Assembly (NCBI GenBank): GCA_947588655.1 | Contig: CANPYS010000002.1 | Coordinates: forward strand, 11,912-75,911 | Reading direction: 5' to 3' | Length of the DNA: 64,000 bases | Origin: an uncultured Alphaproteobacteria bacterium | GTDB taxonomy: Bacteria > Pseudomonadota > Alphaproteobacteria > RF32 > CAG-239 | Shown here: piece after piece, positions 28,505 to 61,938 of the stretch | Layout: each line of letters opens with the position of its first letter | How positions within the stretch are numbered: position 1 is the first letter of the stretch | Notes under the pieces: model-generated | What the model was told of the DNA's origin: nothing | Database searches by the model: none | Seen by the model: only the letters and a program-made list of their open reading frames with translations | Program-made: the position numbers and the translations under genes

Positions 28505-28930
28505 TTACCGCCCTTGAAAGCGATTAAAATTGTTTGCTAATTTCCGATACATGTTTGACACGGGTGCCCAATGCAGTTTTTTCGGCGCTGGTTCAGGAGC
28601 AAGATGTTTTTTAAGGTACTCTGGATCTTTATGCCTTTCCTCAAGTATTTCTTTAAAATTCCGCACATATATTTCTTCCACTTGACGAATAATATCAGCA
28701 AGAGCACGACTTTTATCTTCAAACTCTGTATAACCTTGCTCCTCTAACATTTTAAAAAACTTCTCTCTCTCTTCTACGGATGATTTAAAATTCGGCCAAA
28801 TACCGCTTGAACGCGGTCCCATAGTTCTCCAACCGCCCACAAATCCACATTTATGGGTCATCTTCAAGTGCTCCATATCAAGATTCCAGTCTTTGATATA
28901 TTCCTCATATGGTGGTGGGGTGTATTGCAT
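28505..28930 (-). CDS. Hypothetical protein (141 aa) in a low-GC insertion
   Basis: Intact ORF MQYTPPPYEEYIKDWNLDMEHLKMTHKCGFVGGW…; AT-rich surroundings; no recognisable motif. Confidence 0.45.
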   Translation of the reverse strand: MQYTPPPYEEYIKDWNLDMEHLKMTHKCGFVGGWRTMGPRSSGIWPNFKSSVEEREKFFKMLEEQGYTEFEDKSRALADIIRQVEEIYVRNFKEILEERHKDPEYLKKHLAPEPAPKKLHWAPVSNMYRKLANNFNRFQGR

Positions 28931-29059
28931 TTTCTACCTTCCTTACCTGTATATATACATATTTTTTGAAATTTGTCAAGCATTTTTTAATCTTTTTACG
29001 GTTGATTTTAGAGATAAAATATAGTATAATAGGTTTATATAATTTTAAGAGAATACCCC

Positions 29060-30364
29060 ATGGAAGAATATGAAGTTTATAGTAAAATGTTAAATGATTA
29101 TTTAGATATTAATGAATATATAGATAATCACACTTTAGAAAAATTAACCGAACCAGTTATGTTGGTTTTTGGCTATGTAGAAGAAAAAAACATAAATTTA
29201 CGAAAAAGTGGCAACGCCAAGGCTGTTGAACAATACAAAAATGATAATGGCAAACAAGTTGTCCAAACTTTAAAAGATGCTGGTTATAAAGCTGCATTTT
29301 ATACTGAAAAAAGAGCTTCCCGCCCCAGTTATATTGCTGTTACTAAAACCGGTATCATCACACCTTTTTACCAACCTGATGAAGCCCCTCAAATTGCCCG
29401 CGATATTTTAGAAACGCTTGTCCGCGCCAATGTTGCCTTACCTTTAAGCTATGTTTGGGGAACAACCTTTAATCAGCTGACATACCCCGCACCACGCACC
29501 CCGGAAGATTTTCGCTCGGTTTTGGCGGGAAAATTAGCGCATCCTAACCCGAAACGTTTTGATGAAATTATGAAAAAGCATGGAAAAGATTTTTATAAAA
29601 AGATGCTTGGTGAAGCATTTAACAACAAGATGGCTCGCGCAGATATATATAAAAAATATGAGTCTTTAAATAGAGCTTATCATGGCGGTATCACAAGCCA
29701 ACCTATGGTCATTTTTGCCAAAAACAACCTTGAATCAAGGCATCTTGTTTATGGCTCTTTAGGGTTTGCCCAGGCTTATAAACATTCTATCATAGATAAT
29801 GAATCTAGAGGGCAAGGCTTTAATTATGAGCACGCTTATGGATTTTTACATATTTACAAGATTATCGGAAGCACTAAACTAGAACCTACAGGTTCTTTAG
29901 AAACACGCGGTAGTCCTAGACTTCCTATAGATATTAATGATATGGAGTTTCCTCTTTGTAAAAGCAATGTAGAATATGTTGAAACGCTCGTTTGCTTTGA
30001 AGACGGGGCTTTTTTAATCCCTAATAATGACAAAGATTGGGAAGACTTCAAAGAACTCTCTCAAGTTTCGTATTATGATGAACGAGAAAGAATGCTCTTT
30101 CGTCGTGAAAATCTAATTATGCAGCAATTTTTAAATAATAACGCTGTTATCACATATAGCCCAAGAGGAAGAATGCAAAAAGAAAGCATTGATAACGACG
30201 TTAAAAATTATATGTCTAAAGTCAGGAACAAACTGGCAAAAAAAATTGATAAAGCTCTTGGTACAAAAACAGCCCCCTTAAAAGCACCACAAATTATAAA
30301 AAAGCTTGAACGAGTAGCAAGCATTTTACGCTTCAAAGCCCTTAATAAAATGAATACAAAATAA
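29060..30364 (+). CDS. Hypothetical protein (434 aa) in a low-GC insertion
   Basis: Long intact ORF; markedly AT-rich codon usage compared with flanking addA/trxA; no recognisable motif. Confidence 0.5.
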   Translation: MEEYEVYSKMLNDYLDINEYIDNHTLEKLTEPVMLVFGYVEEKNINLRKSGNAKAVEQYKNDNGKQVVQTLKDAGYKAAFYTEKRASRPSYIAVTKTGIITPFYQPDEAPQIARDILETLVRANVALPLSYVWGTTFNQLTYPAPRTPEDFRSVLAGKLAHPNPKRFDEIMKKHGKDFYKKMLGEAFNNKMARADIYKKYESLNRAYHGGITSQPMVIFAKNNLESRHLVYGSLGFAQAYKHSIIDNESRGQGFNYEHAYGFLHIYKIIGSTKLEPTGSLETRGSPRLPIDINDMEFPLCKSNVEYVETLVCFEDGAFLIPNNDKDWEDFKELSQVSYYDERERMLFRRENLIMQQFLNNNAVITYSPRGRMQKESIDNDVKNYMSKVRNKLAKKIDKALGTKTAPLKAPQIIKKLERVASILRFKALNKMNTK

Positions 30365-30890: not shown

Positions 30891-31853
30891 ATGGTCAAAA
30901 TTAATGACGTCCCTTTTTCGGATATTTACATCACCCCTGAAAAAGTTGCTTATATCCCCGATACACAAACCGAAAATGGCTTGCAAATTTTTGAGCCTGA
31001 AGATTTTGGCGTTTTTTATGCTCTGCTTGAAGAAAAATATAAGGGCAACTCTAGCTACTCGGTTTGTTATGAAAACGTTTTTTTCCGCGTTGAAAAAAGT
31101 ATGACCGTTACAGGCGTGCAATATTGCGCGCGCAAAATGCCCAAAACTGTGCCTGATTTTAGAAATTTGGGCTTTCATAAAGAATTAACCGAATATCTTT
31201 TAAACCTTTGCAAAGCATCGGGGCTGATTTTGTGGTCGGGCGCAACAGGCTCGGGCAAAACAACCGCGATTTCATCGCTCTTAAAAGAGTTTTTAATTCA
31301 AGAGGGCGGCTTTGCTTATACGATTGAAGACCCTGCTGAAATGCCTCTTGACGGCGAATATACCGCCTTAAACGGCTCGTTCGGACTATGCAAACAAACC
31401 AACCCGATTGATGATAAATGGGGCGAATCGTTAAAATCGGCTTTGCGTTCTAAACCGCGTTATATTTTGGTTGGCGAAATCAGAACGCCTGACGCCGCCT
31501 CTGAGTGCCTACGCGCCGCAACATCAGGGCACTTGGTGTTGTCTACCATTCACGCCAACAATATTCCTGACGCTGTTAACGCCCTTGTGAAATATGCCTC
31601 GGCAGGCGATATGAGTGAGGATTTGGCTTATGATATGCTCTCGCGCGGACTTTTGGGCGTGATGCACCAAACACTCCGCGGTACAGGCGTTAAAACGCCA
31701 GTGTTACGCTTTTTGTTCGCTAACCCCGATACGCGCAAAGGATGTCAGGTAAGATCTATTATCAAGAGCGGCAAAGTCAACCTTGCCACACCAATTGAAA
31801 CGCAAATGACGCGCTTGGCACAAGGTCGTCCTATTTTTGAAGATTATGAATAA
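30891..31853 (+). CDS. PilT/BfpF/DotB-like hexameric secretion ATPase (putative pilus retraction ATPase)
   Basis: 320 aa. Walker A WSGATGSGKTT, Asp box …YTIEDPAEM…, Walker B/His box RYILVGEIRTPDAASECLRAATSGHLVLSTIHANN. Colinear with PilT and lacks the long N-terminal domain of GspE/PilB. Confidence 0.72.
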   Translation: MVKINDVPFSDIYITPEKVAYIPDTQTENGLQIFEPEDFGVFYALLEEKYKGNSSYSVCYENVFFRVEKSMTVTGVQYCARKMPKTVPDFRNLGFHKELTEYLLNLCKASGLILWSGATGSGKTTAISSLLKEFLIQEGGFAYTIEDPAEMPLDGEYTALNGSFGLCKQTNPIDDKWGESLKSALRSKPRYILVGEIRTPDAASECLRAATSGHLVLSTIHANNIPDAVNALVKYASAGDMSEDLAYDMLSRGLLGVMHQTLRGTGVKTPVLRFLFANPDTRKGCQVRSIIKSGKVNLATPIETQMTRLAQGRPIFEDYE

Positions 31854-32417
31854 TTATTCAAAAAACCAGCTCAACGCGTTGGTTTTGCCGCAGATTTCTG
31901 CGGCTTTTTCTTTATCAATCGGGAGCGTGTTTTCGCCACCCCATTCAAACGTTTGCGTCTGATTGTCGGTGCTGATTACAATTTTTAACAAACCCGCTTT
32001 AAACGAATCGGACATCGGCGCGGCAGCTAAATAGCGGCAAGCCTTGGCGCTAATTTCAGGAATTGTAACCACAAACTCGCGACTTCCGATTGAAACCGCA
32101 TTCCCAAGCGAATCGCCACCAATTAAAAGCTCTTTGCCAAGCGCTGATATAATTTTACCGTTACGATTCATTTGCGGATCTATAATGCCTTTTTGGAGCG
32201 CTGTTGCCGTGTCTAAACCCCAATAATTGGGTTGGCGGTTATAATGCTGTCTGATAGATTCTGCTAACGATTCAACCTGAATTTGCGTCTTTTCAAAGCT
32301 TTTTTGCGCTGAAGGCCAAAGCAATATCAATAACAAAAATGCCAAAAACGCAATGCCGAAAGCCAAAACATATTTGTTTTGATAGTTTCTGATTTTCGGC
32401 AAGTTTATGGTTATCAT
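31854..32417 (-). CDS. Pilin-like / pilus structural protein candidate (occupies the pilS position after pilR)
   Basis: Start ATG 32417 is coupled to the pilR-like stop (TAAAATG). It encodes MITINLPKIRNYQNKYVLAFGIAFLAFLLLILLWPS…: a basic N-region then one hydrophobic helix, but no canonical G/(F,M)xxxE prepilin site. Confidence 0.3.
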   Translation of the reverse strand: MITINLPKIRNYQNKYVLAFGIAFLAFLLLILLWPSAQKSFEKTQIQVESLAESIRQHYNRQPNYWGLDTATALQKGIIDPQMNRNGKIISALGKELLIGGDSLGNAVSIGSREFVVTIPEISAKACRYLAAAPMSDSFKAGLLKIVISTDNQTQTFEWGGENTLPIDKEKAAEICGKTNALSWFFE

Positions 32418-32418
32418 T

Positions 32419-33537
32419 TTAGCCTCCCATAGCGCTGGTGATTTGATCTTGCATCTCAAACACGCCAAACACCGCCCAAGCAATAACGCCTGCGATTGAA
32501 AGCAACGCCACCATATTCAAAATGCCGGCTTTTTGTTCAATCATATAAACCGATTCTTCAAGCCACTCGTTGGCGAGTTTTTCAAGCGCCTCTTCAAAGT
32601 TATCCAATTCAGAATAAATTTTCAAATCGGCAATAATTTCTTTATCAGGAAAGCCCAAGCCCGTTTTCATAAGCGCTTGCCCTAAGTTATCGCCGTTTTT
32701 GATGTAAATAAGCGTTTTATCAATGCGCTCTTTCAAATAAGTGTTTGAATCGCGCCGTAAAGACGTTAAAGCGGTTGAAACAGGCACGCCACCTTTTACT
32801 AGAGCGGAAAGCGCCAAAAGCCATGTAATGCCTGAAAACACCTTGTATAATGACCAAGGCGGAATGTTATCAAACATCGCGCGAATCGGCCCCGTCCAAA
32901 TGCCGATGGTCACATATATCACAAACATAATGATTGGGAACGTTAAAAACGCCGCCAACCAGTTTTCTTTAATCCAGGCGGAAAGGTCAACCAATGTTTT
33001 TGCCGTGCCAACCCAGCGCGTGCCAGGGGCGGCATCAATCATCGGCGGCACCATATACACACCAATTGCCCAAATAATTAAAACCGCCGCCATTAACAAA
33101 AACGACGGATAAGAAATTGCGCCGATAATCGGGCGAATCATTTTGGTTGAACCCTCAGTCACTTTAATCAGGTTTAAAAGCGCGCTTTCCAAGTCTGAAA
33201 CATCGCCCACGGAAAGCATTAGTCTTTCACGGCTCGGTGCCCAACCCTTTAAAGCATCTGAAAAAGGCAAACCATTTTGTAGCGAACGTCCCCAACTTGC
33301 TAAAGCAATTGCCATAGGCTCTCCAGGGTTTTTGCCACCATTTGTTATGCCGTCATGCAACATATCAAGCGCGTCCATTAATGAAAACCGGTTGCGCATT
33401 AATGACGCTAGTTTACGATAAATTTTTAACCGCGCACTGTTTGAAAAATTGCAAACCATTTTGGCATAATAAACCTCTATGGTGTTTAATGATCTGATTG
33501 CACGACTAAAAGATTGCGTTTTATTATGTTCAGGCAT
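32419..33537 (-). CDS. Type IV pilus/T2SS inner-membrane platform protein (GspF/PilC/PilR family)
   Basis: 372 aa; cytoplasmic N-terminal GspF-like domain followed by three hydrophobic segments; adjacent to and coupled with the GspE-family ATPase. Confidence 0.72.
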   Translation of the reverse strand: MPEHNKTQSFSRAIRSLNTIEVYYAKMVCNFSNSARLKIYRKLASLMRNRFSLMDALDMLHDGITNGGKNPGEPMAIALASWGRSLQNGLPFSDALKGWAPSRERLMLSVGDVSDLESALLNLIKVTEGSTKMIRPIIGAISYPSFLLMAAVLIIWAIGVYMVPPMIDAAPGTRWVGTAKTLVDLSAWIKENWLAAFLTFPIIMFVIYVTIGIWTGPIRAMFDNIPPWSLYKVFSGITWLLALSALVKGGVPVSTALTSLRRDSNTYLKERIDKTLIYIKNGDNLGQALMKTGLGFPDKEIIADLKIYSELDNFEEALEKLANEWLEESVYMIEQKAGILNMVALLSIAGVIAWAVFGVFEMQDQITSAMGG

Positions 33538-33547
33538 AAATTATCTC

Positions 33548-35224
33548 CTAGTAAACAGGACGCTGATCCAACAAGCCGCACCAACGCTCCACTTCGTCTA
33601 AATCAATATAACCCTTTAACATACGTTCAAGCGCCGCATCACGCAACGGCCGACCGTCAAGTTCACTTACCCAATAGTCAATGGCACGTTTGGTATCGCC
33701 GCTTATCATCAACTGCAAAAACATCGCGTCTGGCAAAATAATTTCAGGCACAGACAAGCGTCCGTTAAAGCCCTTGTAGCCACACGCCTTGCACCCTGGG
33801 CCACGCACATATGTATTTTCAATGCCAAAGTCGCCCAAGGCTGTTTTTAAGCGTTCAAACGAGGGGTCTTGCATGCGCTGCTTAACCGAAACACGACAAT
33901 GCGGGCAAAGCCTTCTAAACAAACGTTGCGAGATAAGCCCTTTCATCAATTCAGGATCTGCAAGCATATAAGGCTGAACACCCATATCGCGCAGACGGGT
34001 AATAATCGCCGGCGCCGAGTTGGCGTGCAACGTTGTCCACACGCCGTGACCAGAAAGCGCGCCCTTAAAGGTTAATTCTGCGGCGGAAAGCGAACGAATT
34101 TCACCGACCATCATCACATCAGGGTCAGAACGCAAGGCGGCGTTCAAAGCTTTTGTAAATTCGCCCTCTTTTTCTTCTTCAGTGTTGGCGTTCGTCACAG
34201 GCATTTGTCGCGCACCCGGGATTGGGTACTCCGGCGGATCTTCCACTGTTAAAAGGTTGATTTCATAGTTCTTTTCTTGCAAAAGCTTAATCATATTTCT
34301 TTGCAAGGTCGTTGATTTACCGGAGCCCGTCGGACCTGCAATAATGTTTAAGCCAACCGGCACGGCGCGTAAGCGATAAAACAAATTTTCTTCACGCTCG
34401 CCAAAGCCCAAAGCACGCAAGTCCGAACTTCCGTCAGGGTTGTCATCGGCGTACAGAAGACGCATAACCAAATATTGCGAACCAAAAGCAATTGGGTTAA
34501 ATTGTAAACGAATAGCCAAAACGTTGTGTGGCAACATCAAGCGACCGTTTGAACCACGCAACGGCGTTTCGCCTAATTTTTGCGCGCCCTGAAACTCGTT
34601 CTGCGCATAGTTTGAGTCTGAAATATCGGCAGATGCAAACGCGGCACGCACAAACGCCTCGCCCCATTCTTTGTTGTATTCCATTTGCCGAACCATCATA
34701 CCGTTGATTCTGAACATCACAAGCGTTGAATCAGCCACAACAATATGCACGTCGGACACCTTTTGCACAGATGCGCGCGATACAATATTGATGAAGTCAA
34801 TCTGCATTTGCATCTGGTCAAGGTTTTCGCCCTCAATGTCCGTTAAACCGATACCGCGCTCGGCATAAGCATAAATGGCGCTGATTTCGTTTTGCGAAAC
34901 ATAATTTGGCGGATTTATCGGCAGTTTGCGGCGCTTGATGGTCTTTTCAAAGTTATAAACCAAACCGTCAAAACGGTGTTCTTTTGAAACCAAATATGTG
35001 CCGTCTGAAAACAACGCCAACAGGCGGCGCGTTTCATCGCTGATTTGAATATCAGGGTTGCTCGGCAGTGTGATAAGCTTGTTGCCTGCGCCAAAAAGCT
35101 TTTCTAAGATATTAACCTTATGCGTCTGCTCAGTAGATGTTTCAAGCAAATAAGAACCGGAAGAAGGCGTCTCGGTTTTGGCGTCTTGCTGATTGGGCGA
35201 AGTATTTTCCTTTTTATCGGCCAT
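33548..35224 (-). CDS. Type IVb pilus assembly ATPase (GspE/PilB/PilQ-R64/BfpD family)
   Basis: Walker A GPTGSGKSTTL, Asp box LLTVEDPPEYPIPG, Walker B DVMMVGEIR, His box SGHGVWTTLHANSA, tetracysteine CPHC…CKAC; 558 aa. Confidence 0.88.
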   Translation of the reverse strand: MADKKENTSPNQQDAKTETPSSGSYLLETSTEQTHKVNILEKLFGAGNKLITLPSNPDIQISDETRRLLALFSDGTYLVSKEHRFDGLVYNFEKTIKRRKLPINPPNYVSQNEISAIYAYAERGIGLTDIEGENLDQMQMQIDFINIVSRASVQKVSDVHIVVADSTLVMFRINGMMVRQMEYNKEWGEAFVRAAFASADISDSNYAQNEFQGAQKLGETPLRGSNGRLMLPHNVLAIRLQFNPIAFGSQYLVMRLLYADDNPDGSSDLRALGFGEREENLFYRLRAVPVGLNIIAGPTGSGKSTTLQRNMIKLLQEKNYEINLLTVEDPPEYPIPGARQMPVTNANTEEEKEGEFTKALNAALRSDPDVMMVGEIRSLSAAELTFKGALSGHGVWTTLHANSAPAIITRLRDMGVQPYMLADPELMKGLISQRLFRRLCPHCRVSVKQRMQDPSFERLKTALGDFGIENTYVRGPGCKACGYKGFNGRLSVPEIILPDAMFLQLMISGDTKRAIDYWVSELDGRPLRDAALERMLKGYIDLDEVERWCGLLDQRPVY

Positions 35225-35241
35225 CTTCCAGTTTTCCAGTC

Positions 35242-36789
35242 TTATTTAACAAACATACCCGCACCTAATGAAGGCATACCTTTCGTTGCGGTTAAGCCTG
35301 CATTTGTATTGCCCTTTTTCTTAGGAGCAATAATCTTTTTGGCTTTATTGATTGTGCCTGAAAGCGTTTCCTCAGATTCAACAAAAGGCTCCGGTTCAAC
35401 ATTTGTCGCTGATGTGCTGGTGTATAAAAAGTCTTTTAAGCCGTTTCTATCAAACTGAATATAGTTCTTGCCGATTTTTTCAACCGCGTGCCCTGTTTGC
35501 AAAAGCGTGCCCTCGCGCACCATAAACGACTGACCATCCTTGTTCATTAAGGTCGCGTTCATTTCATCGCCTTTGCCTGTGATGTCTAAAATGGCATATT
35601 CCTTGGCAATGGCAATAGGAGCAATTTCTGCGTCAATCTCATCACCCTCATCTGTTACGGTTTTGCCGTCAGCTGTTGTTGTTTCGCTAGGTTTGCCCGA
35701 GAACGGATTTTCGGTTTTATTTTTAAGCTCTAATTCGGTTGCTTCCAAACGCTTGCGCAACTGCACATTCTGCGCCGTTAAATTTGCAATGGCGCGGTCA
35801 TGATTGCCCTTTGCCTCGCTGGCAACGTTGACAAGCTTGTCCGTCCTGTTTGAAAGATTTTCTAGCTTTTCTTTATAAACATCTGAAATGCGCTTGCGGT
35901 CTTCTTCAACATCTTGAATTTTTTTGTAAAGCTTGGCATTTTCTTGAATCCAAGTCTGATTTTCTTTCAACATCTGATTCATATAAGCCGTTAAAACTTT
36001 GCGCTGTTTTAATTTTTCAAGCTGAATTTCCTTTTCCTTTAAGGCTTGCTGTTCGCGCAAAATTTTAGCTTTCTGTTCTGTTTCCCATTCTTGTTGCTTG
36101 CGCTGTTTTTCTTCTTCAGCCGCCAATTTTTCCTGATAAGCTTTTTCGCGCTGTTCCTTAATTGCCGCCAATTCGTTCTTCAATTTTTCGCGGCGCAGTT
36201 CAAGCGTTAAAAGCGTTGTTTGCTTTTCAATATCTGACATCTGGCTGAAAAGATCATTATTAATCAACGAAAGCAGGCTATCACCAAATTGCGGTTCAGA
36301 TTTCGGTACAATTTCTTCAACCGTGGCAAGCGGTGCAGTTGCCGTTGCCGTTGTTGTTTCCGGCAAAGCTGGTTTTGTTTCAGGCGAGGCTTGCTCCGGC
36401 TGATTTTTTAATTCAAGCGAAAAATCTTCCGGTTTGCTATCCTCCGCAGGTTTTTCTTCAGCCTTAGGCGCTTCTTCAGCCTTAGACGTTTCTTCAACTT
36501 GCGTATCAGGAAGAGCCTCTTCCGGTGTCGGTGGGGTTATCAGAGCACTCTCGTCAAGCGGAATAATCTCGTCAGTTGTTTCCAAAACCTCAACTTCCGC
36601 CTGTGGCTTTTCTTCTTCCGTGGTCGCGGGTGTTGCCGCCGGTTCTTTATTTTCCAAAGAAGGCGCGTCGGTTTCTTCAACAAGCGTAACCACGCCTTGT
36701 GCCTTAGCATTGCTCACCCCAAGCAAAACCAAAACAACGGCGAAAAGCATATTTTTATTCAACTTATAAAACATAGATTGCTCCTTCAT
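35242..36789 (-). CDS. Periplasmic coiled-coil protein with a PilP-like C-terminal domain (PilP position)
   Basis: Signal peptide (MLFAVVLVLLGVSNAKA); ~150-aa P/E/T-rich low-complexity region; ~170-aa K/E/Q coiled coil; C-terminal β-rich segment (…AILDITGKGDEMNATLMNKDGQSFMVREGTLLQTGHAVEKIG…) resembling PilP/GspC secretin-binding domains. Confidence 0.4.
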   Translation of the reverse strand: MKEQSMFYKLNKNMLFAVVLVLLGVSNAKAQGVVTLVEETDAPSLENKEPAATPATTEEEKPQAEVEVLETTDEIIPLDESALITPPTPEEALPDTQVEETSKAEEAPKAEEKPAEDSKPEDFSLELKNQPEQASPETKPALPETTTATATAPLATVEEIVPKSEPQFGDSLLSLINNDLFSQMSDIEKQTTLLTLELRREKLKNELAAIKEQREKAYQEKLAAEEEKQRKQQEWETEQKAKILREQQALKEKEIQLEKLKQRKVLTAYMNQMLKENQTWIQENAKLYKKIQDVEEDRKRISDVYKEKLENLSNRTDKLVNVASEAKGNHDRAIANLTAQNVQLRKRLEATELELKNKTENPFSGKPSETTTADGKTVTDEGDEIDAEIAPIAIAKEYAILDITGKGDEMNATLMNKDGQSFMVREGTLLQTGHAVEKIGKNYIQFDRNGLKDFLYTSTSATNVEPEPFVESEETLSGTINKAKKIIAPKKKGNTNAGLTATKGMPSLGAGMFVK

Positions 36790-38056
36790 ATTGCCAGTTG
36801 TTACTGTCTACGTTATACCTTATAGTATTGACCTTAAGTCCTGAAAATTTTGTTAACAAATCGTTCCATTCCAACGGATTATGCGTTGAACCAAAACTAA
36901 AGCCTATCAGCCTATATACTTTTTGCTGTGGCGATGTCCAGGTTTGTGGTTGCATTGAGATAGGCATTTCCAAGGCTTGAAACAAGTCGTTTATTGTATT
37001 AATTAAATCTGTCTGATTTTTATCAGGTGGCGAATTAAGCGTTTGAGGCTTATCAACCGCGATTGAAACAATAACACTGTTGCCGTCTGGCGATATTGAA
37101 CGGCTTGTAAAAGGCAAGCCCGAATTATTTAACGCTTTATCAATCCATGTAATACGCCCAATTTCACGCCGCCAAGAAGTGACAAGCGATGACGAATTAC
37201 AAGTGATGCCCTGCAACTTCCACCCCGGTGTCATTAACTGCACAACCGCTTGTGTGGCATAATAACAATGCGCTAAAACTTGCGTTGGATTTTCCACGCT
37301 TTCCCAAGGTTTTGGCTCAGGCGGTGGCGGTGGTGGCGTTTCAATGCGGCGCACCGGCACCGGCGCGATAATCGGCTTTTTGGGCGCTGATAAGAACAAA
37401 CTGTTCACAAGCGTTGAAATAAGCCAAATTCCAACAATGCCCGCCGCCGCCCATACCGCTAAAAGCTTGGCGCCGCGCAAAGCACGAATTTTTTCAAGTT
37501 TGGCGACTGTGCCTCTTTGTAAAATTTCGGCTAAATCAGGGTTTTCAGTTTCATCAATGCCCCATTCCGCCGGCGCAATCTTGCGTCCCCAATCCGGCAC
37601 GGCAAGCATAGACATAAACTGATCTTTAGCGTCTTGCTCGTTGACAAAGAGCATATCGCCATCGGAAAGGATAATATCGTTACGGGCGCAGACATACCAC
37701 CAACCTTTGTCAACCTTGAAAACCGCTAAAAATGATGTCCTATCCGACCAAGCCGTTGCCAAAGCGACTGCTGCCGCCGGCATACCCTTTTTATAACCCT
37801 GAAAAGATATGCACAAACCAAATTGTGTGGCTTTGCCAGGTTTAATTGTAAATAAATCAGCACCCTCTAAAACGTTTTCAGAGGCGTCAATAATTTCAGG
37901 AAACGGATCATCGCGGCGTTGCAAGGACTGCCAAAACAGGCTTGCGGCATAGCTCACACCACCAAGCGTAAAGTTTGTTTCCCAAGCTTTAGCTTCGTCC
38001 CTTGGCGCTTGCTCCGTGACCGGCGTGTTCTCGTCTAATTTGGCGTCCTCTAACAT
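36764..38056 (-). CDS. Bitopic inner-membrane assembly protein (PilO of R64 / BfpC-like)
   Basis: 430 aa; ~200-aa cytoplasmic domain, a single TM (KLLAVWAAAGIVGIWLISTLV), proline-rich linker, ~200-aa periplasmic domain; it sits between the secretin and PilP-like genes as in R64 pilN-pilO-pilP. Confidence 0.45.
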   Translation of the reverse strand: MLEDAKLDENTPVTEQAPRDEAKAWETNFTLGGVSYAASLFWQSLQRRDDPFPEIIDASENVLEGADLFTIKPGKATQFGLCISFQGYKKGMPAAAVALATAWSDRTSFLAVFKVDKGWWYVCARNDIILSDGDMLFVNEQDAKDQFMSMLAVPDWGRKIAPAEWGIDETENPDLAEILQRGTVAKLEKIRALRGAKLLAVWAAAGIVGIWLISTLVNSLFLSAPKKPIIAPVPVRRIETPPPPPPEPKPWESVENPTQVLAHCYYATQAVVQLMTPGWKLQGITCNSSSLVTSWRREIGRITWIDKALNNSGLPFTSRSISPDGNSVIVSIAVDKPQTLNSPPDKNQTDLINTINDLFQALEMPISMQPQTWTSPQQKVYRLIGFSFGSTHNPLEWNDLLTKFSGLKVNTIRYNVDSNNWQYEGAIYVL

Positions 38057-38072
38057 TTACGTTCCTTTTAGC

Positions 38073-39725
38073 CTAAAGTTTCATACGCGATTCCGGCATT
38101 AAGGGTGATTCCAAAACCACCGGCGTCAACATAATAACCAAAATACTGCGTGTTTTTTCAGCTGTGGCGGTACCGCCCAAAATTGAATTTTCAGCCGAGC
38201 CCGTACCTGTCTTATTCACAGAGTTTTCAACACGCTCATAACCGCTCAAAATAAGCGTTTCGCCTGATGTTAAAGCAACTTCCTGCGTAAAACCGCGCGT
38301 TTCAATAATCGGGTTTTGAATGTATTGACCGCTATTCGGATTTTCCGGATCGCTTGAACCGCCTAAGTCAACCTTTTCAAGCGCAATCAAGTCAGAAAGC
38401 GTAAGGTTAAACATCATCATCATACGACCATGCTCCAAAATGCGGGGCAAAACGTCAAGCGTGAAACCTGTTTCAATTTCTTCCGTTTCGGTGGAAAGAT
38501 CATAATAACTGCCGTCCGAACCCGAGTTTGTTTTGGTAATTTCAGAAATGTAGTTTTGTGTCTGAATAACTTGAATCGGCGCGGGCTTGTTGTTCAAGGT
38601 TGTCACCGTACCGCTCGTAATTAAGTTCGTGGTGCCTTGCTCTGAAAGCGCTTGCAAAACGGCGTTAATGTTCCAATCGCCCGAAACAATGTTCATAGAA
38701 AGCGTGTTCGGGACTTCAGCACCCAAGCCACCCGCACCGGCAATACCGACGTTACGAATCGCATTTTTAGAGCTTGCAAACGCCGCGTTTAAGTCTAAAC
38801 CATACTGGTCGCTATCTGTTATATTAACTTGCAAGACTTTAACACTAATTGCCACTTGGCGCGAAAGTCTGATGTTTTGCTCGTGGATAAACTTCGCCGC
38901 CTTGCGAATATCCATCGGCGTACCCGTTAAGGTAATTGTGCCGTTAGATTGGTCGGTTGTCATTGTCGCGCCCTTGCTGATTAAAGACTTTAAGGAGCTT
39001 TCAATGTTTGACCACAAATCAATAGAAATGTTGGAGCTTAAAGAAACAGACGACGAACCGCCACTTCCTTCTGTGGACGAGCCACCAACGTTAACAGACA
39101 ACGACGGCTTGGTTGGCAACGAATATAGCACAAATGTTTTGGTGATGTATTTATAAAACGTGATTTGTTTCTTTTCATACTTCCACCAAATGCCAAAACG
39201 ATTGCTCACTTCATCAAGCAAGCCGCTTAAAGGCCCTTTATATGAGAGGAGCATTTTATCGCTTTCTGTCCATTGTGCGCCAATCGTTTCCAAACTGGGC
39301 TGATTGTTATCCGCAACACGAATCGCATCTTGCTCTAAGTCATTTTCATAGCGCACGGACAATGATGTGATTTTATTAATCATATCGCCAATTTCATAAA
39401 GCGAAATCGGGCGGTTGCTGATTAAAGTAATGCCGTCCGGCCCTTCTAAGTAACTTGGCAAAGGCAAGCCCTCGTATTCAACCTCGCTTGTATCGCCAAG
39501 CCAAATATCGTTTTTAACCCGCACCACATCATTCGTGGCAACGGGCATGGGCGTTTTTGCCTCTTCTTTTAAACGCACCGTATTTTCAACCTCGCGCTCA
39601 ATGGTCGCGTCCATATCGGTTGAGATGGAGCAGGCGGCCAAACCCGTTAAAGCCGCACCCAAGGTTAAACAAACAGCCTTATTCATACGCATTTTCATCC
39701 TCCATCGTTTCAACAACCAAGACAC
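38073..39725 (-). CDS. Outer-membrane lipoprotein secretin (PilN-R64 / BfpB type)
   Basis: Lipobox LTGLAAC after an n/h region. C-terminal secretin signature …GETLILSGYERVENS…KTRSILVIMLTPVVL; glycine/serine-rich central region; ~530-550 aa like R64 PilN/BfpB. Confidence 0.8.
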   Translation of the reverse strand: MSWLLKRWRMKMRMNKAVCLTLGAALTGLAACSISTDMDATIEREVENTVRLKEEAKTPMPVATNDVVRVKNDIWLGDTSEVEYEGLPLPSYLEGPDGITLISNRPISLYEIGDMINKITSLSVRYENDLEQDAIRVADNNQPSLETIGAQWTESDKMLLSYKGPLSGLLDEVSNRFGIWWKYEKKQITFYKYITKTFVLYSLPTKPSLSVNVGGSSTEGSGGSSSVSLSSNISIDLWSNIESSLKSLISKGATMTTDQSNGTITLTGTPMDIRKAAKFIHEQNIRLSRQVAISVKVLQVNITDSDQYGLDLNAAFASSKNAIRNVGIAGAGGLGAEVPNTLSMNIVSGDWNINAVLQALSEQGTTNLITSGTVTTLNNKPAPIQVIQTQNYISEITKTNSGSDGSYYDLSTETEEIETGFTLDVLPRILEHGRMMMMFNLTLSDLIALEKVDLGGSSDPENPNSGQYIQNPIIETRGFTQEVALTSGETLILSGYERVENSVNKTGTGSAENSILGGTATAEKTRSILVIMLTPVVLESPLMPESRMKL

Positions 39726-40515
39726 GGTTTCCTTTATAGAACGTGGCTATCGGCGCAGGGCGCGCTCTGGCAAATGCCCTGATTAAAGCCGAACTCACAT
39801 CGGCAAAATTACCTCTAAAGATGGCGCCCGCACTTAAAACATAGTTGCGGTTTGTGTTCCAAATTAAGCGCCAACCCGAAATCTCGCTCCATTCGGTCAA
39901 CAAAGCCTTTAAGTTTTGCCCTTCATCAGCCACCCAATCTTTGACTTCATCGTCTGAGGGTTCTTTTTCTTCGTCTTCATCTTCAATGGCAACGCAAGTT
40001 TCTTCATACATTAAGCCTTCGGGGCAATTTTCGCCTTCTGTCGCAAGCTCGGCAGGAGCAGGCGCAGGCTCTGATGTTTGTTCAGCTGTCGGTTCTGACG
40101 CCTTTTCTTCAGGCTCGCTTATAATTTGCGCACCGGCTTCGTAAGCCACAACTTCATCTTCAATGGACGGGGGAATAGACGCCGAGATGTTGTTGCCGGC
40201 CGCCGCCTGCGAAATGCGTTGATCACGTGGTGTGCGCTCGCCGTAACGTCTAAAATCAGCCGGTGTGCGTGTGTAGTTTACAAATGGATCTGTGGCGCAA
40301 AGGCTTGGATCGCCACCGTCTTGGCAAACAGTTGCCGGCGCTGGCGCATACGACTCTTCTACAATAACCGTACTATTTGGACAATCCGGCCCAAAGCAAT
40401 CACTCTCGCCCCACAATCTGTTCCATGTGGAATTAAATGTGGAACAGCCACAAAGAGCAAGAATTCCGGCCAATAAAAACATTTTATTGTACATATTTAT
40501 TCCCCTGTTATTCAT
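39679..40515 (-). CDS. Pilus-associated lipoprotein (PilL/TcpQ-like)
   Basis: Lipobox LALCGCS; acidic/proline-rich middle; C-terminal …WSEISGWRLIWNTNRNYVLSAGAIFRGNFADVSSALIRAFARARPAPIATFYKGNRVLVV resembling the TcpQ/PilL domain. It overlaps the secretin start. Confidence 0.4.
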   Translation of the reverse strand: MNNRGINMYNKMFLLAGILALCGCSTFNSTWNRLWGESDCFGPDCPNSTVIVEESYAPAPATVCQDGGDPSLCATDPFVNYTRTPADFRRYGERTPRDQRISQAAAGNNISASIPPSIEDEVVAYEAGAQIISEPEEKASEPTAEQTSEPAPAPAELATEGENCPEGLMYEETCVAIEDEDEEKEPSDDEVKDWVADEGQNLKALLTEWSEISGWRLIWNTNRNYVLSAGAIFRGNFADVSSALIRAFARARPAPIATFYKGNRVLVVETMEDENAYE

Positions 40516-40581
40516 AATTTTTTAACCATCATACATACCTTAAAACAAATAATCAAGCTCAACAAAGCACTTATTACCAAC

Positions 40582-42126
40582 TCAATAATAGCTTTCTTTT
40601 ATCGGCAATTGAACTCCCTCTAACGTATTTTCTTCCTCCTCATCGCCAAACCGAATGTTACGAATAACAAAAGAGTTTGGCTCACGCGCCGTAAAGACAA
40701 CGTTTATTTTCCTAAAATCAACACCGCGCTCGGCTAATATGCTTGAAAGCAAATTTAAGCGCTTTTTCTGCAATGCTTGTGGCGCGGACGCATCTATGCG
40801 GATTTCAATAATCACGTTATCGTTATCGCGCGCATTGTCGGCAAAGCCACGAATCCATTTAAGCGTTTGCCCTGAAATTTCAGCGCGGTTCGGCTGGAAC
40901 GACAAACGCAATTCAGCCGGCAAGATCGTGGCAGGCTTGTCAATTGGCGGCGGGGTGGCTGATTTTTTAGGTTTGTTCGCTTTTGGATTAGATGGCGTTG
41001 CCGTTTCGGCCAAGTTTTCTTCCGTCACGTTCTCTTCGCCCCCGCTTTTCTCATCGGCCTTTTTCTCGGAAAACCACGATGTTATGCGTTTAAACAAGCC
41101 CGATTTTTTATCGGTTTCATCAAGCGGCTCGTCTTGAACTTGAGGTTTTTCCTCAGTTTTTTCCGCTTTCTCTTTATTTTCAGGTGCATTCGGCTCAAAA
41201 GAAAGTTGCGGCGTTAAATCGGCATCGTTTAAAATCTCGTCCGGAATAGGAATAAGCAGATTTTGAATCATCTTATAAGCAAGTTTGCTTGCCTCGTCAG
41301 GCGTTTGCAACAGTTTGGGACGAAAAGTTTCTTCAACGCTCGCCACATCCGCCGCCGGCAATTCGGGCGCAACCTCAACCGCAGGTTCCGGCGCCTTTAA
41401 TTCTTCTTTGGGCGCGGTTTCTTCTTTTGGCGCTGGCTTTAGCTTTTCAAAGGCCTCAACCGCCATTTTGTTCTTGGCATATTTGTTGCCCCGCGCCATT
41501 GTCCACGGATTTTCAGGTTTATCTTGCGCCAACTCTTTTAAGTTTTCATCAACAATGTCACGGCTTGTTTTACCGTAAGCCACGCCGCCGTCATAAACAG
41601 CGCCGTCCAAAATAACCGACTTTGCCAATGCCGCAAAATCCGCTCGCTCCACGTTTTGATGCACAACCTCGGTCGTTTCCTCAATCGGTAAAATGGTTTC
41701 CCCTGATATTTCAGGTTCATAAACAACTTTTTGCCCGTCAAAGGGCTTTCTGCTCACAATTTCTTCATCTAAAACAATAGCGTGCGCTTTATCAAGCCCA
41801 TAAGTCGTATCAGGCTTAATTTTCCAAGGTTTTTGCCGTGGCACAGGCGCTTTGGCTATTTTTTGAGGTTTCGGTTTTTCAACCGCAAGCGTTTCTATGG
41901 AAGAATAATCAACCTTTTCAAAGGGTGTCGGGGAGATATTTGACAACTCCGTGACTTCAGCTTTATCTTCTGCAAATAGCGAAACGCTTTGCACATCAAG
42001 ATTTTTGGAAGAATTTGCTAAATTTTTGCTTTGGGGCGACTGAAAGAACGTTTTGTCGGCCAATATAACCGCAAATATGGATAAAATAAAACTGCACACA
42101 AAATTTTTAATGCCGTTTTTTTGCAT
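40582..42126 (-). CDS. Secreted/periplasmic proline-lysine-glutamate-rich protein with an OmpA/MotB-like C-terminal domain (first gene of the pil operon)
   Basis: N-terminal signal sequence; long disordered K/P/E region. The last ~100 aa (…LKWIRGFADNARDNDNVIIEIRIDASAPQALQKKRLNLLSSILAERGVDFRKINV…) resemble a peptidoglycan-binding OmpA-like fold. Confidence 0.3.
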   Translation of the reverse strand: MQKNGIKNFVCSFILSIFAVILADKTFFQSPQSKNLANSSKNLDVQSVSLFAEDKAEVTELSNISPTPFEKVDYSSIETLAVEKPKPQKIAKAPVPRQKPWKIKPDTTYGLDKAHAIVLDEEIVSRKPFDGQKVVYEPEISGETILPIEETTEVVHQNVERADFAALAKSVILDGAVYDGGVAYGKTSRDIVDENLKELAQDKPENPWTMARGNKYAKNKMAVEAFEKLKPAPKEETAPKEELKAPEPAVEVAPELPAADVASVEETFRPKLLQTPDEASKLAYKMIQNLLIPIPDEILNDADLTPQLSFEPNAPENKEKAEKTEEKPQVQDEPLDETDKKSGLFKRITSWFSEKKADEKSGGEENVTEENLAETATPSNPKANKPKKSATPPPIDKPATILPAELRLSFQPNRAEISGQTLKWIRGFADNARDNDNVIIEIRIDASAPQALQKKRLNLLSSILAERGVDFRKINVVFTAREPNSFVIRNIRFGDEEEENTLEGVQLPIKESYY

Positions 42127-42383: not shown

Positions 42384-43013
42384 TTAGATTAAGCCCATTT
42401 TTTGCGCCGTGACGACCGCTTGTGTGCGATTGTTGACCTTTAGTGAACGCAAAAGCGCATTAATATGCAGTTTAACCGTCGCTTCAGAAACGCCTATTTC
42501 ATAAGCTATTTGCTTGTTTGACTTGCCTTGCGCAATGAGGTCAAGAACTTGCGATTGCCGATTTGTGAGCATTTTGCCACTCGCGCGGCGACCTGTTCCG
42601 TTTAAGCCTTCAGAAGAATTTTCTATCAGCGCTGGAGGAATATAGGTGCCACCATCTAAAATAAGTTTGAGCGCATTATTCATAACTTTGGGCTCGGAGC
42701 GCTTGGGAATGTAGCCCTTTATGCCACTTGATAAAACTTTTCGGATATTACGAATGTCTTCAGAGGCTGAAACAACAACAATATCAATGCCTTCGGCCTT
42801 TTGGCGGATTTGCTCAATGCCGTCTTCCCATTTCATATCGGGCATATCTAAATCAACAATTATGAGGTTCATACCTGTTTCTTTATCCAAAATTTTTATT
42901 GCCTGCGAAAAGGTTGCCGCCTGCTCTATAACAATTTCCGGATTAATTTCTTCCAGACGCATTGCCAAACCGTCCCTGAACAATGCGTGATCGTCGGCAA
43001 TCAAAACTTTCAT
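42384..43013 (-). CDS. NarL/FixJ (LuxR-HTH) family response regulator at the head of the pil locus
   Basis: REC domain (MKVLIADDHALFRDGL…IIVDLDMPDM…) and C-terminal LuxR HTH (LTNRQSQVLDLIAQGKSNKQIAYEIGVSEATVKLH). True start is ATG 43013 with an AAGGAGG RBS. Confidence 0.85.
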   Translation of the reverse strand: MKVLIADDHALFRDGLAMRLEEINPEIVIEQAATFSQAIKILDKETGMNLIIVDLDMPDMKWEDGIEQIRQKAEGIDIVVVSASEDIRNIRKVLSSGIKGYIPKRSEPKVMNNALKLILDGGTYIPPALIENSSEGLNGTGRRASGKMLTNRQSQVLDLIAQGKSNKQIAYEIGVSEATVKLHINALLRSLKVNNRTQAVVTAQKMGLI

Positions 43014-43126
43014 ATTATCCTCCTTAACTTGTTCATCAGGCGTTTTTAAACGCCACTTGTCCGCTGATATAATCATAAGTGCAGACATTTAAAGTCCAGA
43101 AGTCAAAAAAAACAGTTCTTTGCTTG

Positions 43127-45034: not shown

Positions 45035-45075
45035 ATTCTAAATTAGTATTTCTAAATTAGTATTTCAAATTTTGT
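45035..45075 (-). repeat. Intergenic remnant of the 15-bp minisatellite (two units, reverse orientation)
   Basis: ttctaaattagtatt tctaaattagtattt is the reverse complement of aatttagaaatacta x2; it starts directly after the eno stop. Confidence 0.7.
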
Positions 45076-51122: not shown

Positions 51123-51647
51123 GTGTTTATATTATTAAAATTAAAGATTATGAAAAAGATTTTTAAAAAAGACGGCTGGTATCTGAAAGATAAGCCCGAT
51201 GGTAACGCTTTATACCGTCATGATGGAACGCTCGTTGCCGACAAATTGCTTTTCTGTTTTTCGTGTAAAAATGGTTGGTACGGTTTGCAAACAAAAGACG
51301 GGTTTGCGCTTTACCGCGCTGACGAATCGCTCGTTGCTGACAAATTGCTTTCGTGCTTTGTTTATAGCAACGGTTGGTACAAGGTTCAAACAGAAGAAGG
51401 TGTTGCTTTGTACCGCGCCGACGGCTCTTTGGTCGCTGATAATTTGCGTTCTTGTTGTGTTTTTGACAACGGTTGGTATGAATTGCACACCAAAGAAGGC
51501 TCTGCCCTTTATCGTGATGACGAATCACTCGTCGCTGATAACTTGCTTTTCTGCCTTGCCTATGGCAATGGCGCTTACGAATTACATACAACAAACGGCG
51601 TGTGTATATACACAGGCGACAATACATTAAAAAAATTTATGCCGTAA
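51123..51647 (+). CDS. Repeat protein with five tandem ~30-aa WG-like modules
   Basis: Modules NGWY(G/K/E)LQTK(D/E)G(F/V/S)ALYR(A/D)D(E/G)SLVAD(K/N)LL…; likely start at 51150. Confidence 0.55.
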   Translation: MFILLKLKIMKKIFKKDGWYLKDKPDGNALYRHDGTLVADKLLFCFSCKNGWYGLQTKDGFALYRADESLVADKLLSCFVYSNGWYKVQTEEGVALYRADGSLVADNLRSCCVFDNGWYELHTKEGSALYRDDESLVADNLLFCLAYGNGAYELHTTNGVCIYTGDNTLKKFMP

Positions 51648-61936: not shown

Positions 61937-61938
61937 CT

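Follow-up and report, generated by a model that had tools for sequence, protein, structure and literature searches.

A type IVb pilin-fold protein with a predicted uncleavable signal anchor, coupled to the platform gene of an R64-like pilus locus from an uncultured gut alphaproteobacterium

Among described systems, the locus analysed here is closest to the PilL-PilV clusters of R64 and of Salmonella Typhi SPI-7, with which it shares both gene set and gene order (PilL-PilN-PilO-PilP-PilQ-PilR, followed by a pilin-family gene, the PilN and PilP assignments being probable), including a probable PilN-family lipoprotein secretin, a PilO of the PF06864 family and a PilL carrying a TcpQ domain. Unlike R64 and SPI-7, it lies on the chromosome between housekeeping genes; PilM, PilK, the PilT lytic transglycosylase, the PilU peptidase and the PilV adhesin are absent, and there is apparently no shufflon. 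At the PilS position lies a 187-aa ORF (hereafter S') whose product has no class III signal peptide but whose head resembles S. Typhi PilS (3fhu). The locus further differs from that of R64 by the presence of a PilT-like ATPase, which R64 is not known to encode. The S'-carrying locus is best read as a variant of the known R64-like type IVb system in which a predicted uncleavable pilin paralogue is the new element.

In the window (the whole stretch of 64 kb that was analysed), the minus-strand cluster 31854-42126 corresponds to an R64-like type IVb machine, towards which a gene for a PilT-like ATPase is convergently oriented (Table 1). PilO, PilL (TcpQ), the PilQ ATPase and the PilR platform are encoded in one operon, with PF06864, PF10671, PF00437 and PF00482 all scoring above their cutoffs. 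The secretin falls just short of its TIGR02520 cutoff but exceeds that of PF00263 (56 bits); it has a lipobox (LAAC) and its likely start, MRMNKAVCLTLGAALTGLAAC, gives a product of 539 aa that matches the gene call in locus L001. In the PilP-like protein, a signal peptide and an acidic/coiled-coil region precede the PilP-like domain at the C-terminus. The position of its gene is conserved in all related loci, and so is that of the 514-aa first gene, of which each has a homologue. For the latter and for orphan neighbours, no match was found in Pfam, NCBIfam, the PDB or PADLOC. The PilT-like ATPase, whose closest PDB structures are those of PilT (2gsz, 2ewv and 5fl3), accompanies the pilus locus in every lineage, its orientation varying, and is probably a retraction ATPase. 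Finally, the LuxR/NarL-type response regulator is a possible regulator of the pilus operon, a link that is uncertain and an adjacency seen in same-species contigs only.

Table 1. Features of the pilus locus in the window
Feature	Position	Strand	Length (aa)	Family match or remark
PilT-like ATPase	30891..31853	plus	320	convergent on and abutting S'; TIGR01420, 111 bits
S'	31854..32417	minus	187	pilin-fold protein, predicted uncleavable N-terminal signal anchor
PilR-type platform	32419..33537	minus	372	GspF/PilC family; PF00482 T2SSF, 86 bits
PilQ-type extension ATPase	33548..35224	minus	558	PF00437 T2SSE, 222 bits; GspE/PilB models
PilP-like protein	35242..36789	minus	515	TIGR03021, 22 bits, below cutoff (34.65)
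PilO, R64-type pilin accessory protein	36764..38056	minus	430	PF06864 PAP_PilO, 58.5 bits
PilN-type lipoprotein secretin	38073..39692	minus		TIGR02520, 274.8 bits (cutoff 287.65); PF00263
PilL-like lipoprotein	39679..40515	minus		C-terminal TcpQ domain; PF10671 TcpQ, 58 bits
Conserved first gene of the operon	40582..42126	minus	514	TM segment or signal sequence at the N-terminus; no match to any family
LuxR/NarL-type response regulator	42384..43088	minus		PF00072 and PF00196; just upstream of the operon

The S' gene is read from 32417 to 31854, and the coordinates given in the sequence-only reading that preceded this work were all correct. Its ATG lies 1 nt past the TAA of the platform gene, to which it is translationally coupled, and is preceded by GGAGG 7-11 nt upstream. 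The product comprises a basic tail (residues 1-15), a TM helix (16-34), a helix corresponding to alpha1C (37-58) and a globular domain (59-187) that contains a Cys127-Cys176 pair. The ORF had not been considered recognisable as a pilin, a view that has to be revised: S' matches the Pfam Bundlin family (PF05307) with 28.5 bits, above the gathering cutoff of 22.3, while its score against PilS_N (PF08805) is 18.1 bits, below the cutoff of 22. An S' profile matches canonical pilins with E-values of ca. 1e-15 to 1e-5, and S' is 26% identical over 155 aa to a pilin of a sister locus; a phmmer search of PDB sequences with S' gave chance matches only. The AF2 model, built on an alignment of 81 sequences, has a pLDDT of 95.6 and a pTM of 0.85 (an alignment of 6 sequences gave a pLDDT of 45). 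When this model was compared to the PDB using Foldseek, the best 11 matches were type IVb major pilins only (CofA, PilS and TcpA), with E-values of 1.6e-5 to 4e-3 and TM-scores of ca. 0.51-0.57 (0.41 for the NMR model of PilS). The modelled protein shows the architecture that defines the pilin fold, an antiparallel sheet against which a long N-terminal helix packs. C127 and C176 are invariant in alignments of 69 and 81 family members, and this conserved pair predicts the D-region disulfide of type IV pilins. Judged from sequence and model, S' is pilin-derived and has a true type IVb pilin fold.

In class III signal peptides, Gly or Ala is the last residue of a hydrophilic leader, and 20-25 hydrophobic residues come immediately after it (PMC10191384). 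S' has no leader of this kind, nor does it have Glu at mature position 5, a frequent but not universal feature of pilins. In alignments, S' I9 falls on the canonical G(-1) and N14 on E(+5), and among 69 family members Gly does not exceed 22% in any N-terminal column and Glu is at 0% across the TM columns. The non-canonical N-terminus that had been pointed out for the ORF at the pilS position is a property of the whole family: neither Gly(-1) nor Glu(+5) is present in its ca. 100 clusters of sequences, which originate from uncultured Alphaproteobacteria of the gut. The tentative cleavage point between G21 and I was rejected, Gly occurring in that column in 5% of the family only. Matches to [GA]x4E in three of the 69 members were also discarded as spurious, charged residues coming next or the match lying past the TM segment. 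Instead, the family has an apolar run with a median length of 21 aa (at least 18 aa in 91% of members) preceded by a median net charge of +3, and by its sequence the N-terminus is a positive-inside signal anchor. We infer that a prepilin peptidase could not cut S', since there is no Gly(-1), and that the charged tail and the missing Glu(+5) would prevent its extraction into a fibre core, so that the protein would stay in the inner membrane without processing, its pilin-like head in the periplasm.

Conservation within the S' family is inverted when compared to real pilins. Indeed, the TM segment of S' has 1.45 bits versus 2.09 bits for the head, whereas in canonical pilins of the same systems alpha1N reaches 4.09 bits versus 2.10 bits for the head. 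The gene is always single-copy and always follows PilR; among 23 distinct loci, 21 have a spacing of 0-4 nt between the two. This conservation pattern, the copy number and the coupling to the platform gene argue against S' being the major subunit of the fibre. Of the suggestion that the ORF is an unusual pilin, the type IVb pilin fold thus holds but a role as major subunit is unlikely, and S' probably serves as a permanent component of the machine rather than as a fibre subunit. When sequences are clustered at 50% identity, the family is represented by 96 clusters at E <= 1e-10. Relatives of the system stem mostly from metagenomes of human and animal guts; a single S' cluster comprises 346 members, and one of these was found on 158 contigs. 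No S' homologue was detected by tblastn in 72,556 PLSDB plasmids, and a literature search on pili in gut Alphaproteobacteria (RF32) returned nothing relevant.

A different role within the fibre would be that of a priming minor pilin located at the tip, which nucleates the fibre and exits the membrane uncleaved, its position making Glu5 dispensable. No known type IV filament does without a priming minor pilin; the filaments assemble from the tip, and their tip-capping subunits are typically without Glu5 (PMC10191384). The single copy of S' and its co-transcription with the platform gene are in line with such a role, as is the situation in several sister loci that have just one canonical pilin next to S', which is then the sole other pilin-like gene, hence the only candidate minor pilin. 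In one locus (L057), moreover, the positional orthologue of S', P0090, keeps a canonical N-terminus, GRSTIEMLAVLAI; its product scores 102 bits with an HMM of the S' head and 97 bits with one of canonical heads, and reads as an evolutionary intermediate between canonical pilins and S'. However, the known minor pilins all undergo processing and have retained Gly/Ala(-1) (PMC10191384). A tail of ca. 15 residues with a median charge of +3 would also have to cross the membrane and enter the hydrophobic core of the fibre, and the poor conservation of the S' TM segment is unlike that of a fibre-packing alpha1N. A tip location therefore appears unlikely to us.

The absence from the window of a canonical prepilin, a peptidase and a PilV adhesin, as stated in the sequence-only reading, was confirmed by a six-frame scan, tblastn and a check of polytopic ORFs. 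No prepilin-like N-terminus was found in the 64 kb when every possible ORF start was scanned for G-x4-E with a hydrophobic stretch, and tblastn with the canonical pilins of sister loci returned the 187-aa ORF as sole match. There is no A24 peptidase candidate in the window, where the platform protein and subunit a of the ATP synthase are the only polytopic membrane ORFs, and neither a PilV-like gene nor a class III ORF of any size was detected. Near-identical metagenomic contigs that extend ca. 10 kb past the right end and ca. 4 kb past the left end carry neither a pilin nor a peptidase, which brings the searched region of the S'-carrying genome to 64 kb plus ca. 14 kb of flanks. A TrbL-containing cluster is located beyond the right end, and Rho and UvrB beyond the left end. 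On a larger scale, a motif heuristic (GxGD[VIL][KR]) revealed no A24-like polytopic ORF in the 0.98 Mb formed by the window and related loci.

In sister lineages, one to three canonical prepilins (Gly followed by RSMVEMLGVLAI) are encoded directly 3' of the S' gene; S' and these pilins occur together in L006, L010, L013 and ca. 25 metagenomic loci. Prepilins of the same type also stand by themselves in 12 or more metagenomic loci, separated from any machine gene by no less than 10 kb, and none of the polytopic ORFs beside them has an A24 motif; a tblastn search with window ORFs of at least 150 aa gave no match in these standalone loci and no tie of them to the window lineage. Taken with the lack of a peptidase in every examined locus of the clade and with the interleaving, by PilQ/PilR identity, of loci with and without linked pilins, the sister prepilins and the standalone loci lend indirect support to the option that pilin and peptidase are encoded in trans. 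Alternatively, the canonical pilins and the peptidase may have been lost, leaving S' alone as a short membrane-tethered periplasmic pseudopilus or plug in a secretion or uptake device, or in a decaying locus. Such a loss would account for the 64 kb and flanks free of prepilin and peptidase, and the pilin-less layout recurs in L005, L011, L008/L009 and L012. Against it, the nine genes of the locus are intact and conserved over deep divergence (68-93% identity for PilQ/PilR and 25-57% for S'), which makes decay unlikely, and the S' N-terminus does not look adapted to a solo role because it is of the same kind in lineages that carry canonical pilins. Standalone canonical pilins are, in addition, common in related metagenomic DNA, and the retraction-type ATPase has been kept. 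We regard the loss of the pilins as improbable, and the related proposal of a secretion machine instead of a pilus finds no support, the PilT-like ATPase and the canonical pilins of sister loci pointing to a dynamic pilus.

Another option for the N-terminus of S' is a Sec signal peptide, whose cleavage by signal peptidase I would release a soluble periplasmic protein with a pilin head, such as a chaperone or plug. The basic n-region followed by a hydrophobic core would suit this, as would the small residues (P-S-A) that come after the core in the S' of the window. Apolar runs as long as those of the S' family, the property on which cleavage was judged, are typical of membrane anchors and not of Sec signal h-regions; besides, no AxA-like motif is conserved past the run and AF2 gives a continuous TM helix with a short linker to alpha1C, making this cleavage highly improbable. 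Just as improbable is a lineage devoid of any cleavable prepilin or prepilin peptidase, in which the PilQ and PilT-like ATPases would drive uncleaved S' as a periplasmic stub or piston tethered to the membrane; this would amount to a peptidase-independent type IV filament system.

Our main reading, to which we assign a probability of roughly 0.55, is that S' is an uncleavable, non-polymerising component of the machine and that fibre pilins and peptidase are supplied in trans. The locus would encode an R64-like type IVb pilus machine on the chromosome of an uncultured alphaproteobacterium of the gut, in which a pilin gene situated directly behind the platform gene gave rise to S'. Of the ancestral pilin, S' would have retained alpha1C, the globular alpha-beta head and the disulfide, and the class III signal peptide would have been replaced by a plain signal anchor made of a basic cytoplasmic tail and ca. 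20 apolar residues. Produced in step with the platform protein and at low stoichiometry, S' would be held in the inner membrane with its head facing the periplasm, most likely as a fixed assembly component that, for instance, docks or primes incoming pilins at the platform or holds the base of the fibre. The fibre itself would be made of the canonical prepilins, encoded elsewhere in the genome of the window and matured by a peptidase that is unlinked to the locus throughout the clade. Extension would rely on PilQ and retraction on the adjoining PilT-like ATPase. By analogy, the role of S' might be akin to that of the archaellin-like, unprocessed FlaF/FlaG in the archaellum.

When compared to the type IVb major pilins CofA, TcpA and BfpA (bundlin), S' shares alpha1C, the beta-sheet head and the C-terminal disulfide, but has none of their long leader to Gly, Glu5 or highly conserved alpha1N. 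PAPI-1 and other ICE-borne PilL-PilV-like type IVb clusters are not known to carry a peptidase gene of their own and rely on a chromosomal one; their PilS2 is a canonical prepilin, unlike S'. Similarities also exist with the Glu5-less tip minor pilins of the GspK/PilK class and with TcpB/CofB, which are of low abundance, as S' is expected to be, and likewise pilin-like and encoded with the machine. These proteins are needed to start assembly, and the cap subunit is without Glu5 (PMC10191384). They differ, however, in being incorporated into the fibre after processing at Gly/Ala(-1), and TcpB/CofB are large and modular, whereas S' is small and predicted to be uncleavable.

FlaF of the archaellum has an archaellin-like domain, no class III signal peptide and a monotopic topology, and remains outside the filament (PMC4425475). 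FlaF/FlaG and S' have in common a filament-subunit-like domain on a monotopic N-terminal helix, the lack of a class III signal peptide and a gene in the machine operon. FlaF, however, is a beta-sandwich that binds the S-layer as stator of a rotating filament and has no sequence or fold homology to S', and FlaG/FlaF appeared in the S' Foldseek search only at E > 1; the parallel is one of logic only, not of family. Because its relatives come mostly from gut metagenomes and because of the large S' cluster mentioned above, the system is likely to be one of the main organelles on the surface of these gut Alphaproteobacteria, a group about which little is known. In described bacterial type IV filament systems all pilin-like parts are processed by the peptidase, whereas S' would be a paralogue that gave up processing and stays coupled to the platform. 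If confirmed, S' would offer a handle on how pilins are presented or primed at the platform in type IVb machines, which are without PilMNOP, and on how the base of the fibre is held, and would constitute a bacterial counterpart of archaellum FlaF/FlaG.

The interval 31854-33537 consists of two minus-strand genes encoding the platform protein and S', the 187-aa product in the pilS position. Both belong to a chromosomal R64-like type IVb pilus locus. The locus lies among housekeeping genes, enolase and dCMP deaminase at one end and thioredoxin and AddAB at the other, in a window of unremarkable GC content. The solved structures closest to the 320-aa ATPase are PilT retraction ATPases (2gsz, 2ewv, 5fl3). 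Two orphan genes located between addA and thioredoxin, with no Pfam or PADLOC match, are missing in the near-identical contig L001, where only a 106-aa ORF is found; this pair is a strain-specific insertion adjoining the pilus locus.

Coordinates of the pilus locus, of other features in the window and of features in related loci
Feature	Sequence	Position	Strand	Remarks
Conserved 514-aa protein	window	upstream, same strand	-	no family match
PilL-like lipoprotein	window	upstream, same strand	-	TcpQ domain
PilN-family lipoprotein secretin	window	upstream, same strand	-	TIGR02520, 274.8 bits (cutoff 287.65)
PilO	window	upstream, same strand	-	PF06864, 58.5 bits
PilP-like protein, 515 aa	window	upstream, same strand	-	weak TIGR03021 match, 22 bits
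T2SSE extension ATPase (PilQ)	window	33548-35224	-	upstream of platform gene
Platform protein (PilR), 372 aa	window	32419-33537	-	PF00482 (T2SSF), 86 bits
S', 187 aa	window	32417->31854	-	ATG 1 base past platform TAA; GGAGG ahead of ATG
PilT-like ATPase, 320 aa	window	30891-31853	+	convergent on S', abutting
PilT-like ATPase	L006	12999-13961
PilT-like ATPase	L010	13350-14312
Canonical prepilins	L006	10646-12920
Canonical prepilins	L010	10573-11774
Canonical prepilins	L013	1442-2020
P0090, at the S' position	L057 (contig Ga0193952_1005155)	836-1375
Orphan pair	window	28505-30364		141 aa (-), 434 aa (+)
Repeats in DnaQ-like exonuclease	window	2030-2152		8 copies
Repeats in AddA	window	25564-25943		25 copies
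Reverse-complement repeat remnant	window	45036-45071		just after enolase
Orphan ORF, 174 aa	window	51123-51647		3.3 copies of a 99-nt (33-aa) repeat
Three orphans	window	61217-63787	-	239 aa, 420-aa lipoprotein, 199 aa
Continuation of the orphan cluster	L093	1-10000		TrbL/VirB6 (PF04610), several large orphans

Elsewhere in the window, a 15-nt in-frame tandem unit, AATTTAGAAAATGCT, encoding N-L-E-N-A pentapeptides, occurs in two unrelated housekeeping genes and as a remnant. Product lengths differ between near-identical strains (AddA, 1283 aa in the window vs 1228 aa in L001; DnaQ, 254 vs 249 aa), which suggests that the copy number of the repeat varies between strains. The 33-aa repeat of the 174-aa orphan (...DG.ALYR.D.SLVAD.LL.C....NGWY...) has no family match.

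The sequence-only reading, in which the pilus locus has no recognisable prepilin peptidase, major pilin or PilV-type adhesin, was confirmed. No prepilin-like N-terminus (G-x4-E with a hydrophobic stretch) was found at any ORF start in the six frames of the whole window, and S' was the sole match in tblastn searches with the canonical pilins of sister loci (26% identical across 155 residues). Two polytopic membrane proteins alone are encoded in the 64 kb, the platform protein and subunit a of ATP synthase; therefore, the window contains no A24 peptidase. Near-identical metagenomic contigs reach ca. 10 kb past the right end, into a TrbL-containing cluster, and ca. 4 kb past the left end, where Rho and UvrB are encoded; neither a pilin nor a peptidase was found in these extensions. 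Across 0.98 Mb (the window plus the related loci), the A24 motif GxGD[VIL][KR] was not detected in any polytopic ORF, and the peptidase therefore seems to be unlinked in the whole clade, even where canonical pilins need one. The three orphans at the right end, which have no Pfam match, run on into the TrbL cluster, probably a type IV secretion-like locus located ca. 20 kb from the pilus locus. In L010, a TrbC gene lies directly upstream of the pilus operon.

S' is pilin-derived. It matches Pfam Bundlin over residues 39-179 with 28.5 bits (gathering cutoff 22.3) and PilS_N with 18.1 bits, just short of the cutoff of 22; no NCBIfam model matches it. The AlphaFold model (81-sequence alignment; pLDDT 95.6, pTM 0.85) displays a helix at 12-32, a brief break at WPSA, a second helix at 37-58 and an alpha-beta head. 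In the structural comparison, the best 11 Foldseek matches in the PDB are without exception type IVb major pilins, among them CofA (3s0t, 3vor), S. Typhi PilS (3fhu, 1q5f), TcpA (3hrv, 8uhf) and the ETEC type IVb pilus (9iuf), with E-values of 1.6e-5 to 4e-3, the following match being at 0.16. TM-scores of the top matches are ca. 0.51-0.57, and lower (0.41) for the NMR PilS model 1q5f. Cys127 and Cys176, at the position of the pilin D-region disulfide, are invariant in the family. With a profile built on S' plus five close homologues as the query, a search of 1.84 billion representative proteins retrieved 223 relatives at E <= 1e-3, of which 96 reached E <= 1e-10. Members of the family occur widely in gut metagenomes; no homologue was found on 72,556 plasmids and no description of S' in the literature.

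The non-canonical N-terminus noticed at first sight extends to the family. In an alignment of S' with canonical relatives, I9 stands at the G(-1) and N14 at the E(+5) position. All but two (P0090 and P0102) of the ca. 100 closest representatives begin with a basic tail that leads into an apolar helix, neither Gly nor Glu being conserved. In 69 family members, Gly reaches at most 22% in any N-terminal column and Glu is absent from all TM columns. The median length of the apolar run in the family is 21 residues (at least 18 in 91% of members), and the segment ahead of it carries a net charge of +3 (median). G21 of the window is not a shared feature (Gly in 5% of the 69 members), and three register-free [GA]x4E matches were spurious. 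More distant profile matches are mostly canonical prepilins (e.g. ...NGRSMIEMLGVLAIIGVLSVGGIAGY... and ...RGLTLIEAAMVLA...). Absence of the class III signal peptide is thus a family-wide trait, and the N-terminus has the predicted properties of a positive-inside signal anchor, not those of a Sec signal peptide or of a prepilin leader. In the latter, the last residue is always Gly or Ala, with 20-25 hydrophobic residues after it (PMC10191384), a definition by which S' is not a prepilin.

In related loci, S' is invariably the next gene after the platform gene, with a gap of 0-4 nt in 21 of 23 distinct loci. Two arrangements were found. In the window, the MAG contig CANRJO010000004.1 ("uncultured Alphaproteobacteria"; S' 57% identical), L011, L008/L009 and L012, the convergent PilT-like ATPase directly follows S' and no canonical pilin occurs within 10 kb. 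In L006 (a 450-kb contig), L010, L013 and ca. 25 human-gut or other metagenome loci, one to three canonical prepilin genes come between S' and the same ATPase. Their products are matched by the Pfam Bundlin and PilS models and have an N-terminus of G followed by RSMVEMLGVLAIIGVLSVGGIAGY; the same type stands alone in at least 12 metagenomic loci whose flanks of at least 10 kb contain no machine genes. By PilQ/PilR identity to the window, the arrangements are interleaved (75-78% for L006 and L010 vs 68-72% for the pilin-less L008 and L012), and pilin genes have therefore entered or left the locus more than once. Linkage of the PilT-like ATPase to the locus is constant, but its orientation varies: it abuts S' convergently where pilins are lacking and is co-directional after them where they are present. 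The interleaving of its two arrangements implies that this junction was rearranged repeatedly. In L006, L010, L013 and a set of 79 loci, the clade prepilins share an almost invariant N-terminus, G then RSM(V/I)EMLGVLAI, whose G(-1)/E(+5) spacing places Arg at mature +1, where it is unusual because this residue should lie within the fibre core. Tandem pilin copies that are nearly identical (97% in L006) occur in some loci.

Subunits whose helices pack in a fibre core are expected to combine a conserved alpha1N with a variable head. Canonical pilins do so (4.09 of 4.32 bits for alpha1N, almost invariant, vs 2.10 for the head), whereas the pattern is reversed in S' (tail 1.34, TM 1.45, alpha1C 1.49, head 2.09 bits), which, at the level of sequence, argues against a fibre-subunit role. 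S' is also single-copy, translationally coupled to the platform gene and alike with or without linked pilins, while most canonical pilin genes are preceded by an intergenic region of their own (15-409 nt in L006, L010 and L013). P0090, at the S' position in L057, retains a canonical class III signal, GRSTIEMLAVLAI; the S'-head HMM gives its head 102 bits and the canonical-head HMM 97, compared with 48-69 and 121-144, respectively, for the three pilins downstream. P0090 looks like an evolutionary intermediate, and S' thus seems to have arisen from the first pilin gene behind the platform gene, whose class III signal was lost.

Taken together, the fold, the homology, the nature of the N-terminus, the synteny and the distribution of conserved positions favour, with a probability of roughly 55%, S' as a pilin-derived, uncleavable machine part anchored in the inner membrane, with fibre prepilins and peptidase encoded in trans. 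S' would be produced in step with the platform protein and stay in the membrane without polymerising, its pilin-like periplasmic head docking or priming pilins or holding the fibre base; canonical prepilins, matured by a peptidase supplied in trans, would form the fibre, with PilQ driving extension and the PilT-like ATPase retraction. Of the options raised from sequence alone, genes in trans is the favoured one, with indirect support from the standalone prepilins, although such genes are only presumed in this genome, and "unusual pilin" holds for fold and descent but probably not for a fibre subunit, which conservation, copy number and platform coupling oppose. That S' is a tip or priming minor pilin is unlikely: in its favour, some loci carry only a single canonical pilin and tip subunits lack Glu5 (PMC10191384), but processing is universal among known minor pilins and the charged tail of ca. 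15 residues is hard to fit in a fibre core. Somewhat less likely still, pilins and peptidase were lost, S' serving alone in a secretion-type device or the locus decaying; however, deep divergence has left all nine genes intact, and lineages that bear pilins have an unchanged S' N-terminus. A peptidase-independent type IV filament system, a subset of this explanation, is improbable. Equally so is cleavage by signal peptidase I into a soluble periplasmic protein, given the long apolar run and no conserved cleavage motif in the family.

PilO, PilL, the ATPase and the platform, together with a secretin that scores just under the PilN-family cutoff, place the machine in the R64 / S. Typhi PilL-PilV kind. 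PilM, PilK, PilT (transglycosylase), PilU and PilV are missing, and a PilT-like ATPase is present. S' folds like CofA, TcpA and PilS, but its N-terminus does not have the features that define a prepilin. FlaF of the archaellum, to which Foldseek detected no homology, has an archaellin-like domain without class III signal peptide, is monotopic and is absent from the filament (PMC4425475); by analogy, S' may follow the same logic.
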